Source: an uncultured Actinomycetes bacterium (GTDB lineage: Bacteria; Actinomycetota; Acidimicrobiia; IMCC26256; PALSA-555). From it: 64,000 nt of DNA. The position numbers and the translations under genes are program-made. The notes under the pieces were generated by a model that worked only from the letters and a program-made list of their open reading frames with translations, was not told where the DNA came from and searched no databases. Positions 2,189 to 64,000 of the stretch are shown here, piece after piece. The stretch lies in contig CAWGDC010000001.1 in NCBI GenBank assembly GCA_963821325.1, forward strand, positions 450,178 to 514,177, given 5' to 3'. Position 1 is the stretch's first letter, and every line of letters begins with the position of its first letter.

Positions 2189-3005
2189 CTACGCGTGTCG
2201 CGGCCGGTTGGTCCAGGTGCCCTCGAGCGTCCGGAACCACCCGCCAGCCGCGAACGTCCCGCCGTCGGCGTGCACCGTCGTGCCGGTCACGAACGCCGAC
2301 AGATCGGACGCGAGAAACAGGGCGACGCCCGCCAGATCGTCGGGTGTGCCGAACCGGCCGAGGGGCACCCACAGCGGCACGAGCGGTGCGTCGTCGGGCC
2401 GCACCCAGCTCGAGTACGGCACCTGCAGCGTCTCGGTGACGTCGGGCGCGATCGCGTTCGACCCGGATCCCGTGCTGGGCGTACTCGAGCGCCAGGCTCT
2501 TCGTCAGCCCGGTGATCCCTGCCTTGAACGCCGCGTAGACGGCCCGCGTCGGGATGCCTCGGAACGCCTCGATCGTCGACACGTTCACGATCGCCCCGGC
2601 ACCCTGCTCGACCATCGGGCCGAGCACGGCGCGGCTGGTCAGCAGCACGTGCTCGAGGTTCACGCGGTACAGGTCGAGCCACTCCTCCGGCGTGGACTCG
2701 TGGAACGGCTTGCGCGCCCCGCCGTAGTGGCCGACGTTGTTCACGAGCACGTCGACGCGGCCGGCGACCTCGATGGTCGCCGCGACCACGCGGGCGACGT
2801 CGTCCGCCTCCCGCACGTCGGCGACCACGGACTGCACCGTCCCACCCCGCCCCAGGATCGCCGCCGCGGTCTCCTCGGCCCGCCCCGCGTCGATCTCGGC
2901 CACCGTCACGGCCGCACCCTCGGTCGCGAACCGCTCGGCGATCCCCCGCCCGATCCCGCCGCCACCGCCGGTGACGATCGCCGTCTTCCCGTCGAGGAGC
3001 GCCAC
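2189..3005 (-). CDS. short-chain dehydrogenase/reductase (SDR) family oxidoreductase; one frame disruption as sequenced
   Basis: The N-terminal part lies inside ORF 1947..3980 ([26 protein letters not shown]..., [13 protein letters not shown]). The C-terminal part is ORF 2189..2422 ([34 protein letters not shown]). GTG 3003-3005 is taken as start (uncertain). One extra base lies near ~2460 at the GIRV/NAIAPDV junction. Confidence 0.8.
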
Positions 3006-3041
3006 CTCCCCGAGCCTACGAGCCCGGGTAGGTTGACCCCC

Positions 3042-4082
3042 GTGGGCACCGACGCGACCCTCGTCGACGACGACCGCGAGGTGACGGTCGAGGCAACCCC
3101 GACCGGGGACACCCTCCTCGTCGCGGCGGACGACCTCGCTCGCGAGACCGGATGGACGCTGCGGCCCGCAGGGCTGTGCCGAGCGAACGTCTGCGTCCCC
3201 GTCCGCGACCGCGATGCGCTCGTGACCGACGAGGGCATCGACGTGCGGGCCTTCGGCGCCGCGATCGGCCGTCCCGTCGCCGTGGAACCCGACGTCGGCG
3301 TCGCCGTCCTCGGCGCCGCACCGACCGAGGTCCAGGCCCGCCTCGACGCGCGCACCGCCCCGCCGTTCACGCTGCCCGACCTCGACGGCCACCCCGTCTC
3401 GCTCGACGACTTCGCCGGCCGCAAACGACTGCTCATCGCCTGGGCCTCGTGGTGAGGCTGCCGATGGGACCTGCCCGTGTGGCAGGAGCTGCACGATGAG
3501 CTGGCCGCGACCGGCCTGGTGATGCTCGCCGTCGCGCTCGACGAGGACGCGGACGCCGTCCGGCAGTGGGCCCGGGATGAGTCGCCGGTCCCGCTGACCT
3601 ACCCGGTGCTGCTCGACCGTGACCACCTCGTCGCGGAGCGGTACGGGATCCTGAACATCCCGACGACGGTCTGGATCGACGAGGCCGGCACCATCGTCCG
3701 ACCGCCCGCCATCGCGCCCGCCGACGACCGGTTCAAGGACTTCACCCAGATCGAGTCGGCCGTGCACCACGAGGCGCTGCGCCGCTGGGTGCACGACGAC
3801 GTCGCGCCCATGACCGCTGCGGAGATCCACGACCGCCTTATCCCGGCCGACGACGCCGAGCAGCAAGCGCGCGCCGAACGCCGCCTCGCCGTGCACCTGC
3901 TGCGGGCCGGACATCGCGACGCCGCCGACCGTCACCTCGCGGCGGCGATGGAGCTCGCGCCCGGCGACTGGACCATCCACCGCGGGTCGATGCCCCTGCG
4001 CGGGGAGGACCCCTTCGGTCAGGCCTTCTTCGACTACTACCAGACCTGGGAAGCCGCGGGACGACCCGGCTACGGGGCGTGA
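3042..4082 (+). CDS. ResA/TlpA-like thioredoxin-fold protein with in-frame TGA at the redox motif (WASW-U-GC); candidate selenoprotein
   Basis: GTG 3042 is in the same frame as ORF 2208..3455 (tail ...APPFTLPDLDGHPVSLDDFAGRKRLLIAWASW-stop) and ORF 3477..4082 (WQELHDELAATGLVMLAVALDED...ILNIPTTVWIDEAGTIV). Only TGA 3453-3455 plus 7 sense codons separate them. The protein has a thioredoxin-fold layout and a helical TPR-like C-terminal tail. Confidence 0.7.
3453..3455 (+). other. in-frame UGA, candidate selenocysteine codon
   Basis: The TGA sits where TlpA/ResA-type proteins carry the first redox Cys. Both flanking ORFs share the same frame (3042, 2208 and 3477 are all 0 mod 3). Confidence 0.6.
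3470..3486 (+). promoter_or_regulatory. candidate SECIS-like hairpin downstream of the UGA
   Basis: Perfect 6-bp stem CCTGCC/GGCAGG with 5-nt loop CGTGT, starting 14 nt after the TGA. An alternative pairing of CTGCC (3458-3462) with GGCAG is possible. No covariance model was run. Confidence 0.45.
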
Positions 4083-4951
4083 ACGCCGAGGTCGTCACCA
4101 CCGGCATCCGGTTCCCGGAAGGCCCGGTGTTCTGCCCCGACCCGGATGGTGGGCCGGGCACGCTGGTGTGCACCAGCGTCGCCGACGGCGCCGTCGAACG
4201 CGTGCACCTGGCCGACGGCCGAGTCGAGCGGATCGCGACCGTCGGCGGCGGCGCGAACGCGGCCTACGCCGCGGACGACGGCGGCTTCCTCGTCACCCAG
4301 AACGGCGGGATCGACTTCGCCAGCACGAACCTGTATCCCGACCCGCCGCCGTACCAGCCGGTGACACCCGGGGTGCAGCGCGTCCGTCCCGACGGGTCGG
4401 TGCACTACGTCGCCGACGGCGAGTTCCTCGCCCCGAACGACCTGGTCGTCGCGGCGGACGGCACGCTGTGGTTCACCGACCCGCCACCGTTCCCACCGAC
4501 GGGCGCGCCCCGCGGCCGCATACACACGATGACACCCGACGGCACCACCACCACGGTCGCCACCGGCTTCATCTACTGCAACGGCATCGCCCTCGAACCC
4601 GACGGCACACCCGTCGTCGTCGAGGACCGCGGCCTGCTCCGGCTCGTGGACGGCGAGCGGGCGTGGATCGTCGAGGAGCTGCCCGGAGGCAGCGGCGACG
4701 GCCTCTGCGTCGACGTCGACGGTCGGCTCTACGTGGCCAACACGGCCGCGCACGGCGTGCGCGTCCTCGAGCCGGACGGCCAGGAGGTCGAGTTCCTCGC
4801 CCTCGACGGCCGCGGGGTCACCACCAACTGCTGCTTCGGCGGCACCGACGGCCGCACCCTCTTCGCCACCGACGGGCTCCCCGGCCACATCGTCGCCTGG
4901 GAGGGGCTGCCCACCCCGGGCCTGCCCCTGCACCCCTGGCCGAGCCCCTGA
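4079..4951 (+). CDS. SMP-30/gluconolactonase/LRE-like beta-propeller protein
   Basis: ORF 4079..4951 contains GIRFPEGPV, LWFTDPP, LYVAN and LFATD propeller-blade-like motifs. The GTG start overlaps the upstream stop (GTGA). Confidence 0.8.
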   Translation: MNAEVVTTGIRFPEGPVFCPDPDGGPGTLVCTSVADGAVERVHLADGRVERIATVGGGANAAYAADDGGFLVTQNGGIDFASTNLYPDPPPYQPVTPGVQRVRPDGSVHYVADGEFLAPNDLVVAADGTLWFTDPPPFPPTGAPRGRIHTMTPDGTTTTVATGFIYCNGIALEPDGTPVVVEDRGLLRLVDGERAWIVEELPGGSGDGLCVDVDGRLYVANTAAHGVRVLEPDGQEVEFLALDGRGVTTNCCFGGTDGRTLFATDGLPGHIVAWEGLPTPGLPLHPWPSP

Positions 4952-13430: not shown

Positions 13431-13604
13431 GCCCCGAACGGTGCCGCCCCACCGCCGAAGCTCTCCCCCGGCGCTCGCACCCACGCGTGTGACCTCCTCA
13501 AGGCACCCGCTCGGACGTGAGCGCACCATCTCACGAATTCGAGACGAAGGCCCGTCGCCCCGGACCCACGTCGCGCCGGACGCGCCCATCCCAGTACGCT
13601 GTGT

Positions 13605-13660
13605 GACGGCGATGGAGCTCGCCGCAACCGCCTCCCTGCGAGGCTGATGGCTCCTACCCG
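13605..13660 (+). promoter_or_regulatory. fluoride riboswitch (crcB RNA motif)
   Basis: GACGGCGAUGGAGCUCGCCGCAACCGCCUCCCUGCGAGGCUGAUGGCUCCUACCC matches my memory of the crcB-motif aptamer (GGCGAUGG..GCC..AAC.GCC....GGCUGAUG..CUCCUAC). It lies directly upstream of crcB. Confidence 0.85.
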
Positions 13661-13685
13661 ACCAAACACCGTGCGGGAGGACCAG

Positions 13686-48419: not shown

Positions 48420-49211
48420 TCAGAGGCCGAGGAGCGCGTCGAGGCCGACGGTCAGACCGGGCCGGTCGGCGACGCGCTGCACGGCGAGGACGACGCCCGG
48501 CATGAACGACGCCCGGTCGTAGCTGTCGTGGCGGATCGACAGCGTCTGGCCGGTGGTGCCGAGCAGCACCTCCTGGTGGGCGACGAGGCCGCGCAGCCGC
48601 ACCGAGTGGATGCGGATGCCGGCGGGGCTCGCGCCGCCGCGGACCCCCTCGACGACGACCTGCTGGGTGGGGTCGGCACCCCAGTCGGGTGACGCCGCGG
48701 CCATGCGCTGGGCGGTGAGCAGCGCGGTCCCGGACGGCGCGTCGATCTTCTCGTCGTGGTGCAGCTCGATGATCTCCGCGGTGTCGAAGAGCGGGGCGGC
48801 GAGCTCCGCGAAGCGCATCATGAGCACCGCCCCGATCGAGAAGTTGGGGGCGATCACCGCGTTCGCGGCGGACGCGTCGAAGCGGCGGCGCAGGTCCTCG
48901 AGGTCGTCGGGGGTGAAGCCGGTGGTGCCGACGACGGCATGCACGTCGTGGTCGGCGCACCAGACCAGGTTGCCGCGCGCCGCGTCGAGGACGGTGAAGT
49001 CGACCGCGACCTGCGCGTCGGCGTCGGCGAGCGCGTCGGCCGAGCCGGCGACCTGCAAGCCCGTGTCCGCGACACCGAGCTGCTGCAGGTCGATCCCGGC
49101 GTGATATGGGTCGACCGCGGCGACGAGCTCGAGCGTCGGCTCGGCGACGACCGCGCTGCACACCGTGCGGCCCATGCGACCGCCGGCGCCGAACACCCCG
49201 ACCCTCGTCAC
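48420..49211 (-). CDS. dapB: 4-hydroxy-tetrahydrodipicolinate reductase
   Basis: ORF 48420..49211 contains VGVFGAGGRMGRTV (NAD fold) ...APNFSIGAVL...ELHHDEKIDAPSGTA... Confidence 0.93.
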   Translation of the reverse strand: MTRVGVFGAGGRMGRTVCSAVVAEPTLELVAAVDPYHAGIDLQQLGVADTGLQVAGSADALADADAQVAVDFTVLDAARGNLVWCADHDVHAVVGTTGFTPDDLEDLRRRFDASAANAVIAPNFSIGAVLMMRFAELAAPLFDTAEIIELHHDEKIDAPSGTALLTAQRMAAASPDWGADPTQQVVVEGVRGGASPAGIRIHSVRLRGLVAHQEVLLGTTGQTLSIRHDSYDRASFMPGVVLAVQRVADRPGLTVGLDALLGL

Positions 49212-59150: not shown

Positions 59151-61767
59151 TCAAGAGAGGGTGCGGGCGATCTCTTTCAGCTCGTAGGTCTCGATGACGT
59201 CGCCCTGCTTGAGGTCCTGGAAGTCCGAGAGCCCGATGCCGCACTCGTAGCCGGCCTGCACCTCGCGGGCGTCGTCCTTGAAGCGCTTCAGCGACGTGAT
59301 CGTCCCGTTCCAGATGACGACGCCGTCACGCAGGAACCGGACCCGGGACCCGCGGGTGATGCGACCGTTCTGGACGAAGCAGCCGGCGACCTTCCCGACC
59401 CGCGGGACGGAGAACACCTCGCGGACCTCGGCGTCGCCGGTGACGATCTCCTCGAACTCGGGCTGGAGCAGCCCGACGAGCGCGGCGGTGACGTCCTCGA
59501 GCACCTGGTAGATGACCTCGTAGAGGCGCAGCTCGACATGCTCGTGCTCGGCGAGCTCGCGGGCCTTGCGGTCCGGTCGGACGTTGAAGCCGACGACGGT
59601 GGCGTTCGACACCGCGGCGAGGTTGACGTCGGACTCGTTGATGCCGCCGACGCCGCGGTGCACGAACGAGAGGCGCACCTCCTCGTGGTCCTGGTCGAGC
59701 TTGCGCAGCGCCTCGGTGACGGCCTCGAGCGAGCCGTGCACGTCGGACTTCAGGACGACGTTGAGCGTCGCGACCTCGCCGCGCTGCACCATCGCGAAGA
59801 TGTCCTCGAGGCGGGCCCCGCCGGCGAGCGTCATGGGGTGGGCCATGCTCGCGACGTGGCGGCGTCGGGCGCGGGCCTCGGCCACGGTGCGGGCCGTCTT
59901 CTCGTCGGGCGCGACGCGCAGCTCGTCCCCGGCCAGGGGCAGGTCGTCGAGGCCGAGGACCTCGACGGGGGTGGACGGCCCGACCTCCTTCACGGACGCG
60001 CCGTGGTCGTCGAAGAGGGCGCGAACCTTGCCCCATCCGTTGCCGGCCACGACGGGCTCGCCGACCCGGAGCGTCCCTCGCTCGATGAGCGCGGTGACGA
60101 CCGGCCCGCGGCCCTGGTCGAGGTTCGCCTCGAGAACGAACGCCCGAGCCGGGGCCTTCGGGTTCGCGGCGAGCTCCTCGACGTCGGCGACGAGCACGAT
60201 GGCCTCGAGCAGGTCGCTCACGCCCCGGTTCTCGGTGGCGGCCACCTCCACGACGATGGTGTCGCCGCCCCACTCCTCGGGGACGAGGCCTTGCTCGACG
60301 AGCTGCTGGCGGACCCGCTGCGGGTCGGCCTCCTCACGGTCGACCTTCGTGATCGCCGCGATGATCGGCACCTCGGCCGCCCGGGCGTGGTTGATCGCCT
60401 CGACGGTCTGGGGCATGACGCCGTCGTCCGCCGCCACGACGAGCACCGCGATGTCGGTGGCCTGCGCCCCGCGGGCGCGCATCGCGGTGAACGCCTCATG
60501 GCCCGGCGTGTCGATGAACGTGATCGGTCGGCCGTTGTACTCGGCCTGATACGCGCCGATGTGCTGGGTGATGCCGCCCGCCTCCCCCGCCGCGACGCGC
60601 GTCGAGCGGATCGCGTCGAGCAAGGTGGTCTTGCCGTGGTCGACGTGGCCCATCACGGTCACGATCGGTGGGCGCGGCTCGAGCAGCGCGGCGTCGTCCT
60701 CGTCGTCGTCGCCGAGGAGGGCTTGGAGCTCGAGCTCCTGCTCCTGGCCCGGCTCGACGATCAGCACCTCGGCGCCGAGCGTCTCGGCGATCAGCTCGAT
60801 CATCTCGTCGCCGAGGGTCTGGGTGGCCGTGACCATCTCGCCGGCGTCGAGGAGGAGCCGCACGAGGTCCGCGGTGTTGCGGTTCAGCTTCGGCGCGTAC
60901 TCCTGCATCGTCACGCCGCGCGGCACGACGATCTCCCCGTCCGGCACCGGCGCGTCGAGCGGGGTGAGCGCCGTGGGGGACGCCGGGCCGAGATCCTCGA
61001 AGTCGCGGCGGCGCCGCTTCTTGCGTCGCGGCCGCTGACCCTGCGGGCCGGAGCGCCGGCCGGGCGGACCGCCACCGCGGCCACCCGGTCCGCCGGGGCC
61101 GCCGCCGGGTCCGCCGCCCGGACGGCCGGGGAACGACGGGCCGGCACCGAATTCGGGGACGGCCGCCGGGTGCGCCCGCGCCGGGCCCGCCCCCGCCGCG
61201 GGGTGGCCCGCCGGTGCTCGGGGTGAACATGCGGGGACCGGACGGGGGTGGCTGGCGTCGCGCCCCGGGCGGGGGCGGGATCGGCTTGCCGGTGGCTGAG
61301 CGCAGCGTCTCGGGCGGCGGCGCGGGCGGCGCCGCGGCCGCGGGGCGAGGCATCGTCGGCTCGCGGACGGTGGGCGGGGCCGGTTCGGGCAGCCCGCCCG
61401 TCGAGCGCACCACTCGAGGGGCGAGCGGCGGCGGCTCGGGCAGCCCCCCGGTCGAGCGCACGACGCGGTGCGGCGCGTCGGGCCGGGGGGTCTCGGTCGA
61501 CGGCGCCGGCGTCGCCGGGGCGGCGGCGACCGGTGCCGGCTCGGGGACGGGCGCCGGGGTGGGTTCTGGCTCTGGCGGGGGTGCCTCGACGTGCCGAAGC
61601 CCCTTCGTGTCCGCCAGGCGACGGACGCGATCGGCCATCGCGTCCTCGATGCTCGAGGAGTGGCTCTTCACACCGATCTTGAGCTCGTCGGCGAGGTCGA
61701 GGACCACTTGGTTCTCGACCCCGATCTCCCGAGCGAGCTCATAGATCCGGATCTTCTTGGTGGGCAA
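59151..61767 (-). CDS. infB: translation initiation factor IF-2; one frame disruption as sequenced
   Basis: The N-terminus is ORF 60496..61767 (TTG start; [29 protein letters not shown]...). The G-domain and C-terminus are ORF 59151..60947 ([24 protein letters not shown]). The Gly/Arg-rich linker ...[19 protein letters not shown]...[12 protein letters not shown] is readable after removing one base near ~61156 (a G4 run). Confidence 0.93.
61384..61485. repeat. imperfect 51-nt tandem duplication in the infB N-terminal coding region (coordinates approximate)
   Basis: (T/C)TCGGGCAGCCC.CC.GTCGAGCGCAC.AC recurs 51 nt apart. It encodes [12 protein letters not shown] twice, at a 17-residue spacing. 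Confidence 0.6.
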
Positions 61768-62218: not shown

Positions 62219-63537
<1,319 letters not shown>

Positions 63538-63541
<4 letters not shown>

Positions 63542-64000
63542 CGGTGGGCCGCCTCTCGGGTCGGGCGCCCCGGACGGCTCGTGGCCGAGCCCCACTCGAA
63601 CACGGTGCGGGCCTGCGCGACGTCGCCGTAGCCGAGGCGCTCGCGGCCGGTGTCGAAGTCGACCTCGATGGCGGTGTCGTCGGCGGCGACGAGCACGCCG
63701 CGGCGGCGCAGCCCGGCGCCGGCCACCGTGGTCTTGACGGAGATGGTGGTGCCGAGCGCGTGCTGGAAGTGGGCGGGGGTGCGCAGGCGGCGTTCGAGGC
63801 CGGGGCTGGTGACCTCGAGGGTGTAGGCGCCGGGGCAGGCGGCCTGCACGGCCGGGTCGTGGTCCAGGACCGGGGAGAGCGCCTCGCTGGCCGCGGCGAT
63901 GGCGTCGAGGTCGACGCCCCCGTCCCGGTCGACGACGACCCGCACGGTGCGGGAGCGGGCCGGGCCGGTGGCGTCGACGTCGTACAGTCGCAGTCCGAGC
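63538..64000 (-). CDS. rimP: ribosome maturation factor RimP (5' end beyond the window)
   Basis: ORF 63538..63945 plus in-frame upstream codons reaching the window edge (LGLRLYDVDATGPARSRTVRVVVDRDGGVDLDAI...YTLEVTSPGLERRL...). The stop overlaps the nusA ATG (ATGA). Confidence 0.85.

Follow-up and report, generated by a model that had tools for sequence, protein, structure and literature searches.

An in-frame UGA at the redox centre of a ResA-like thioredoxin-fold gene from an uncultured Acidimicrobiia bacterium: a probable selenoprotein

Contig CAWGDC010000001.1 of an uncultured bacterium of the class Acidimicrobiia carries, in the 64,000-nucleotide stretch analyzed here (positions 450,178 to 514,177, forward strand; the whole stretch is called the window, and all positions below are counted from its first letter), a gene for a thioredoxin-fold protein interrupted by an in-frame TGA. 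The interruption raises the question whether the codon ends a gene, is an error of the sequence, or is read as selenocysteine (Sec), as proposed in an earlier note made from the sequence alone. The comparison with relatives indicates that positions 3042-4082 very probably make up a single gene, encoding a selenoprotein of 346 residues in which the internal UGA is read as Sec. This conclusion, and with it the proposal of the earlier note, is supported because the TGA is aligned with a Cys codon of the relatives, is itself conserved at 41 loci, is followed by codons under purifying selection, and is accompanied by a downstream hairpin which is specific to the TGA forms and fits the model of the bacterial selenocysteine insertion sequence (SECIS).

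The TGA codon and its column among relatives

The open reading frames (ORFs) listed for this region split the gene into 2208..3455 and 3477..4082. Both pieces lie in the same frame, as the earlier note had it, and the gap between them consists of the TGA plus seven sense codons (3456-3476); the coordinates given there for the TGA (3453-3455) and the surrounding motif W-A-S-W-[TGA]-G-C proved correct when checked in the sequence. The first ORF reaches far upstream only because its frame, which there runs antisense to the neighbouring SDR gene, happens to contain no stop. The start of the gene was set at GTG 3042, and in an independent contig (L001, see below) a gene caller places the start of the N-terminal piece at the corresponding GTG. 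Between this GTG and the stop codon at 4080-4082 there is one in-frame TGA only. The read-through peptide runs LLIAWASW-[TGA]-GCRWDLPVWQ around the codon (...GRKRLLIAWASW-U-GCRWDLPVWQELH...), and the gene product aligns end to end with full-length Cys homologues of 340-356 aa. The gene itself terminates with TGA, which is thus also an ordinary stop here; TGA is therefore not generally reassigned in this organism, and the recoding would be site-specific.

The homologues were collected with the read-through protein as a query, Cys being set in place of Sec. About 115 full-length proteins were found, 48-67% identical to the query, all featuring the motif W-[AS]-x-W-C-G-C-R and all with Cys at the TGA column. 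The W-C-G-C-R part is invariant among them, and its first Cys is the residue that corresponds to the TGA. The same search retrieved five fragments of 201 aa, 81-99% identical to the query, whose first residue falls exactly where the second ORF of the window starts.

The nearest relatives of the locus reside in six metagenome contigs from five samples (L001-L006; 81-99% amino acid identity). The TGA is found at the same codon in 6/6, with synonymous substitutions on either side of it, and the gene order SDR (minus strand), selenoprotein gene, SGL, ADH is the same in all. As the six contigs were assembled independently, the TGA is no read error. L001 can be aligned to the window over 6.6 kb at 97.4% DNA identity; the two sequences differ by single-base indels, yet the TGA is common to both, and a substitution error is therefore excluded. 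The earlier note had argued that an in-frame stop does not belong to the indel error pattern of the window, and this holds in L001, which differs by single-base indels yet has the TGA.

The codon carried by orthologues at this column, whether TGA or Cys, had been named in the earlier note as a check. In a scan of genomes, one per species, 80 loci carry the gene, mostly in metagenome-assembled genomes (MAGs) of Acidimicrobiia, some in Binatia, Myxococcota/Deltaproteobacteria and other Actinomycetota. The column is occupied by TGA in 34, TGC in 44 and TGT in 2 of these 80 species-level loci, and by TAA or TAG in none. The orthologue on the complete chromosome OY970233.1 (L007) is one that carries TGA. 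Overall, TGA was found at the column in 41 independent loci belonging to at least three phyla, again with no TAA or TAG. Parsimony on a neighbour-joining tree, which is a rough one, requires at least eight switches between Sec and Cys.

Past the TGA, the frame stays open for 208 codons, and in six relatives this part is likewise open and equally long. Differences among these sequences concentrate at third codon positions (17/24/80 at the first, second and third positions in L003), so that the downstream half must be translated in this frame. The pattern of substitutions indicates that this half is under purifying selection.

The hairpin past the UGA

The perfect hairpin described in the earlier note 14 nt past the TGA (CCTGCC-CGTGT-GGCAGG; positions in Table 1) was confirmed. 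According to the consensus used by bSECISearch (Fig. 2 in PMC13188914), bacterial SECIS elements have an apical loop of 3-9 nt on an upper stem of 4-16 bp, a G within loop positions 1-2, usually followed by G or U, a distance of 16-37 nt from the UGA to the apical loop, and a minimum free energy of -7.5 kcal/mol or lower. The element at 3470-3486 falls within all four limits, having a loop of 5 nt on a stem of 6 bp, G and U at loop positions 2 and 3, a spacing of 20 nt (3456-3475), and an energy of -9.3 kcal/mol over its 17 nt. The SECIS-like placement proposed earlier is thus borne out, and the hairpin is moreover conserved specifically in the TGA forms.

The latter point rests on the comparison of TGA and Cys forms. 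At least five contiguous pairs can be formed at the position of the hairpin in 41/41 TGA forms, and in 12/46 Cys forms only (Fisher p 3e-14). Since Sec and Cys have been exchanged at least eight times, the association of TGA and hairpin is not the inheritance of a single clade. Codon usage was compared in the subset of sequences encoding L-P-x-W-Q. The Leu codon is CUG in 39/39 Sec forms and in 10/20 Cys forms (p 3e-6), the Gln codon is CAG in 39/39 and 17/20, respectively. The third-position entropy of the Leu codon is 0.17 in TGA forms vs. 1.13 in Cys forms, while for most other nearby codons the two groups are broadly similar. Compensatory changes were observed in the stem, from C-G to U-A in four sequences, and from G-C to U-A in L060, where a Leu codon CUU is paired with an AAG codon replacing Gln by Lys. 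In the alignment, 95.4% of the cells are paired in the 6-bp hairpin, and RNAalifold returned the same hairpin with a 5-bp core. A longer alternative stem of 11 bp, located 3 nt past the UGA, was considered and set aside in favour of the 6-bp hairpin, as 77.7% of the cells are paired in it and its covariation is no better than that of shuffled alignments.

The loop obeys the pattern N-G-[U/G]-N-U in 40/40 Sec forms, GGUCU being found in 27, CGUGU in 8 and CGGGU in 5 of them, and its bases are constrained in the TGA forms only. As a consequence of the loop pattern, the residue encoded there is Val or Gly, whereas Cys forms mostly have Ala. The 41 TGA and 46 Cys orthologues make up a natural experiment, in which the SECIS hairpin constrains the choice of codons within a coding sequence, and limits even the choice of amino acids (P-V/G-W vs. 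P-A-W).

Alternatives to selenocysteine

Several observations weigh against the assignment of the UGA to Sec, and most concern the decoding machinery and the hairpin. The genes selA, selB and selD and a tRNA-Sec gene were looked for in the 64 kb of the window and in the regions flanking 86 related loci, and none turned up. E. coli SelA, SelB and SelD, compared by tblastn to the window and the 86 loci, matched infB as the sole hit, which is not SelB, and ARAGORN listed no tRNA at all for the window, and no tRNA-Sec for 29 related loci. The hairpin is a short one, unexceptional when taken alone. The 60-nt fold at 3453-3512 has a z-score of -0.35, and 92 of the 1104 TGA trinucleotides of the window (8%) precede a hairpin of at least 6 bp with SECIS-like geometry; the hairpin by itself being no better than chance, its significance comes from the comparison with relatives. 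Even there, conservation is partly a matter of the protein, because four of the six pairs are largely set by the conserved D-L-P-x-W-Q. No SECIS-type match was obtained with Rfam, either in the whole window at gathering thresholds or in the region 3400-3560 at E<=10, a result to be expected, Rfam having only poor models of such bacterial elements. The best NCBIfam match of the protein, NF041054 (E 2.8e-67; see below), scores 227.5 bits, under the curated cut-off of 300 bits, and both Sec insertion and activity are known in the family from prediction only.

These points have to be set against what other readings of the codon would imply. It is extremely improbable that the TGA arose in sequencing or assembly, or by a recent nonsense mutation, in a gene which would really be of the Cys type or a pseudogene. 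The errors seen in the window are indels and not substitutions, the TGA recurs in six independently assembled contigs and in 34 species-level genomes, where TAA and TAG never take its place, and the 208 codons downstream are intact and under purifying selection; these data outweigh the fact that single-base indels relative to L001 break other genes of the window, and that the nearest full-length proteins in the databases are all Cys forms. The TGA might otherwise separate two genes, one for an N-terminal protein of 137 aa, the other for a protein of 201 aa starting from GTG 3477, eight codons past the TGA. Gene callers do cut the gene in this way in all the contigs seen to bear the TGA. Yet such an arrangement is hardly credible, because it would break the thioredoxin fold apart after strand 1 and before helix 1, with loss of the active-site Gly-Cys-Arg, and the Cys forms are single proteins. 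Moreover, among 40 TGA forms, inspected over the 17 codons past the TGA up to the end of a 54-nt alignment, a start codon is found at the position of GTG 3477 in 8 only, and 27 have none in the interval.

A further reading is that the UGA is passed without a Sec system, either by near-cognate insertion of Trp or Cys or by leaky termination, which would yield low amounts of a Cys or Trp protein, or mostly truncated protein. Read-through of this kind might in principle be favoured by a slowing of the ribosome at the hairpin. The hairpin fits, however, the SelB-type consensus both in geometry and in its G[U/G] loop, and the constraint on the loop bases is confined to TGA forms; Trp at the position of the nucleophile would destroy a redox centre which is invariant in all homologues, and the repeated switching between Cys and TGA is the classic pattern of selenoproteins. 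The failure to find Sec machinery in the window and in the flanks of related loci speaks for this reading, but genes for such machinery occur within the class Acidimicrobiia, having been described in Actinomarina (bioRxiv 10.64898/2026.04.03.716425), a context provided by another genome. On balance, read-through of a UGA by means other than Sec insertion is very unlikely.

Should the gene encode a selenoprotein, the UGA would be decoded during translation as established for the SelB mechanism of bacteria, and by analogy the hairpin, through its CGUGU loop, would recruit the SelB-GTP-Sec-tRNA(Sec) complex to the ribosome. The product would be a soluble three-domain protein, in which, as modelled, the C-x-x-C usual in the thioredoxin fold is replaced by Sec138-Gly-Cys140. 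Most likely it works as a thiol/selenol-disulfide oxidoreductase. The nucleophilic attack would fall to Sec138, and the intermediate would be resolved by Cys140, as a strained selenenylsulfide. It would also follow that the organism uses selenium. Since gene callers split the gene and NF041054 misses the clade, these proteins are systematically mis-annotated in MAGs of Acidimicrobiia and related bacteria. The main value of the analysis lies in the correct annotation, and in the clear comparative demonstration of SECIS constraints acting within a coding sequence. The family having been predicted since 2008, the result as a whole is a solid confirmation rather than a discovery.

The product, its surroundings and known systems

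The structure was analyzed on an AlphaFold2 model of a Cys orthologue 67% identical to the window protein (P0001; predicted local distance difference test, pLDDT, 94), which was also used in Foldseek searches. Three domains can be distinguished (Table 1); in the model, the helical C-terminal one spans about residues 230-344. The N-terminal domain, which features an invariant G-W...G-L-C-x4-C-V-P-V, retains a pLDDT of 94 when modelled alone (P0001 residues 1-95). Its fold has no significant match in the PDB, the best E value being 0.24; weak matches at E 0.2-2 include N-domains of ushers and, at E 1-2, beta-grasp and 2Fe-2S ferredoxin-like folds. The core was matched by Foldseek to the Bacillus subtilis ResA structures 1su9 and 1st9, and also to 2f9s, with E values of about 1e-10 and TM scores of 0.8-0.85 relative to the target, in agreement with a thioredoxin fold bearing the ResA-type insertion. 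In Pfam, residues 105-219 match AhpC-TSA (6e-21) and Redoxin (8e-18). The first of these matches reflects the fold shared with peroxiredoxins (PF00578); the peroxiredoxin motif P-x-x-x-T/S-x-x-C is absent from the protein, in which L-I-A-W-A-S-W precedes Sec138, position -7 not being Pro and position -3 being Ala. The active site lies where strand 1 ends and helix 1 begins, as in ResA and TlpA, which is where the earlier note had placed the stop.

Table 1. Features of the predicted selenoprotein gene (positions in the window).
Feature	Positions	Strand	Remarks
Predicted selenoprotein gene, complete	3042..4082	+	346 codons including Sec138; GTG 3042 start, own TGA stop 4080-4082
N-terminal beta-rich domain, about residues 1-99	3042..3338	+	invariant C46 (3177-3179) and C51 (3192-3194) in GLCRxxVCVPV
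ResA/TlpA-like thioredoxin-fold domain, about residues 100-229	3339..3728	+	Sec138-Gly-Cys140 at start of first helix; Cys140 = 3459-3461
UGA codon, probable Sec, residue 138, opening the U-G-C redox motif	3453..3455	+	Cys/TGA column pattern
Putative SECIS-type hairpin	3470..3486	+	stem 3470-3475 / 3481-3486 (6 bp), loop CGUGU 3476-3480
C-terminal all-helical domain, about residues 230-346	3729..4079	+	conserved DWTIxRGSMPLRGEDPFG...W..AGRPGY; predicted helices 237-336

C46, C51, U138 and C140 are the only Cys or Sec residues of the protein, and none of the four varies within the family. A hydropathy scan, with a maximum of 1.14 over 19 residues, revealed no hydrophobic segment, and the N-terminus is acidic and devoid of Lys and Arg. 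As neither a hydrophobic segment nor a signal-like N-terminus is present, the product is predicted to be soluble and is probably cytoplasmic. The ResA-like reading of the earlier note therefore holds in part, the thioredoxin fold being supported by both Foldseek and Pfam, while the C-x-x-C is replaced by U-x-C, and an extracytoplasmic anchor or signal is not apparent from hydropathy. It is conceivable, if rather unlikely, that the clade represents a distinct cytoplasmic selenoenzyme, going beyond a disulfide reductase of the ResA type, in which C46, C51, U138 and C140 make up an inter-domain redox relay or a metal or iron-sulfur site. Alternatively, a centre of the C-G-C type could have as substrates the mixed disulfides formed with a low-molecular-weight thiol, by analogy with the C-G-C bacilliredoxins considered below.

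The genes next to the selenoprotein gene encode an SGL-family protein, a Zn-ADH and a PIG-L/BshB-like deacetylase, all of which score below the respective NCBIfam cut-offs. The start codon of the SGL-family gene (GTG, 4079) overlaps the stop of the selenoprotein gene as GTGA (4079-4082), which suggests co-transcription or translational coupling, and the adjacency of the two genes is kept in the near clade in both Sec and Cys forms. Synteny of the neighbours is likewise restricted to the near clade and found with either form, and no functional link with them is therefore claimed. In one subclade of Sec forms, the selenoprotein gene is preceded, at a distance of about 8 kb, by a gene for tRNA-Cys(GCA) (L055, 1872-1946; L057, 1880-1955; L082, 2168-2242), probably by coincidental synteny.

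Relative to L001, the window features single-base indels at 53, 297, 1615, 1814, 2163-2168 and 2459, and it is to such indels that its other broken genes are due. The extra C at 2459 splits the SDR gene on the minus strand, whose counterpart in L001 is intact (271 aa). The pattern suggests an indel-prone assembly of the long-read type. infB (IF-2) is apparently split too, in the overlapping ORFs 59151-60947 and 60496-61767 (span 59151-61767, minus strand), probably through a further frameshift; upstream of infB is nusA (62219-63595, minus strand). A scan of the window for TGA codons located between two same-frame stretches with high G+C content at third codon positions returned, in addition to 3453-3455, only 4949 and 48422 (minus strand). 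The TGA at 4949 was rejected as a further selenoprotein candidate, being a true gene end. At 48422 (context GLDALLGL*VASAGDAR) there are most likely two adjacent genes sharing the same frame. The only Rfam match in the window at gathering thresholds is a full-length fluoride riboswitch (RF01734) at 13599-13663 on the plus strand (55.7 bits vs. a gathering threshold of 34).

As to known families, the earlier note had named one defined by a WAxxUGC motif. The family exists as NF041054, 'ResA-like WAxxUGC motif-containing protein' (WAxxUGC_long), it is the top match, and the W-A-x-x-U-G-C motif is shared exactly, but the score does not warrant membership. Lengths are close as well, the profile having 354 positions and the protein 346 residues. 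Profile positions 6-205 are well covered by the N-terminal and thioredoxin parts, the N-terminal domain taking up positions 6-115, while the match of the C-terminal part is weak (profile 233-322, 36 bits, E 4e-9). Fourteen members of the clade from three phyla, the window protein and 13 others, gave 205-273 bits. All being below 300 bits, the clade is placed as a sister of NF041054, and not as a formal member of it.

ResA of Bacillus subtilis and TlpA of Bradyrhizobium carry a C-x-x-C motif, are anchored in the membrane, and work outside the cytoplasm. The selenoprotein shares with them the core fold (22-25% identity to ResA structures) and the place of the active site. It differs in having U-x-C, two extra domains, and neither a hydrophobic segment nor a signal-like N-terminus; C-x-x-C is absent from all members of the clade, which have U-G-C or C-G-C. 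A redox pair with this unusual spacing, likewise borne on a thioredoxin fold, is found in the bacilliredoxins BrxA/YphP and BrxB of Bacillus, C-G-C proteins acting on mixed disulfides of low-molecular-weight thiols. Their domain architecture is different, and no sequence relationship was detected (no DUF1094 match in Pfam), so that the analogy serves as a lead only.

Bacterial SECIS elements, such as that of E. coli fdhF, are stem-loops residing in the coding sequence just past the UGA, with a small apical loop in which G is followed by U or G, and the hairpin analyzed here looks alike. The loop of the fdhF element is GGUC, close to the GGUCU found in most relatives. The hairpin of the window, a predicted SECIS element, is only 6 bp and 17 nt long and has no conserved lower stem.

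The closest known group is the 'Prx-like (UGC-containing)' selenoprotein family, reported in 2008 from the Global Ocean Sampling data and predicted there from Sec/Cys pairs, which matches pfam00578 and comprised 46 Sec and 855 Cys sequences (PMC2398784). Thioredoxin fold, matches to pfam00578/cd02966, U-G-C motif and abundance of C-G-C homologues are common to that family and to the gene described here, which we infer to belong to it; the identity of the exact clade is deduced from motif and domain matches. The kind of gene has thus been known since 2008, as a prediction, and the clade is captured by no curated model. Earlier papers provide only a family label and a count of sequences, to which the present analysis adds the architecture of three domains and the constraints of the SECIS hairpin.

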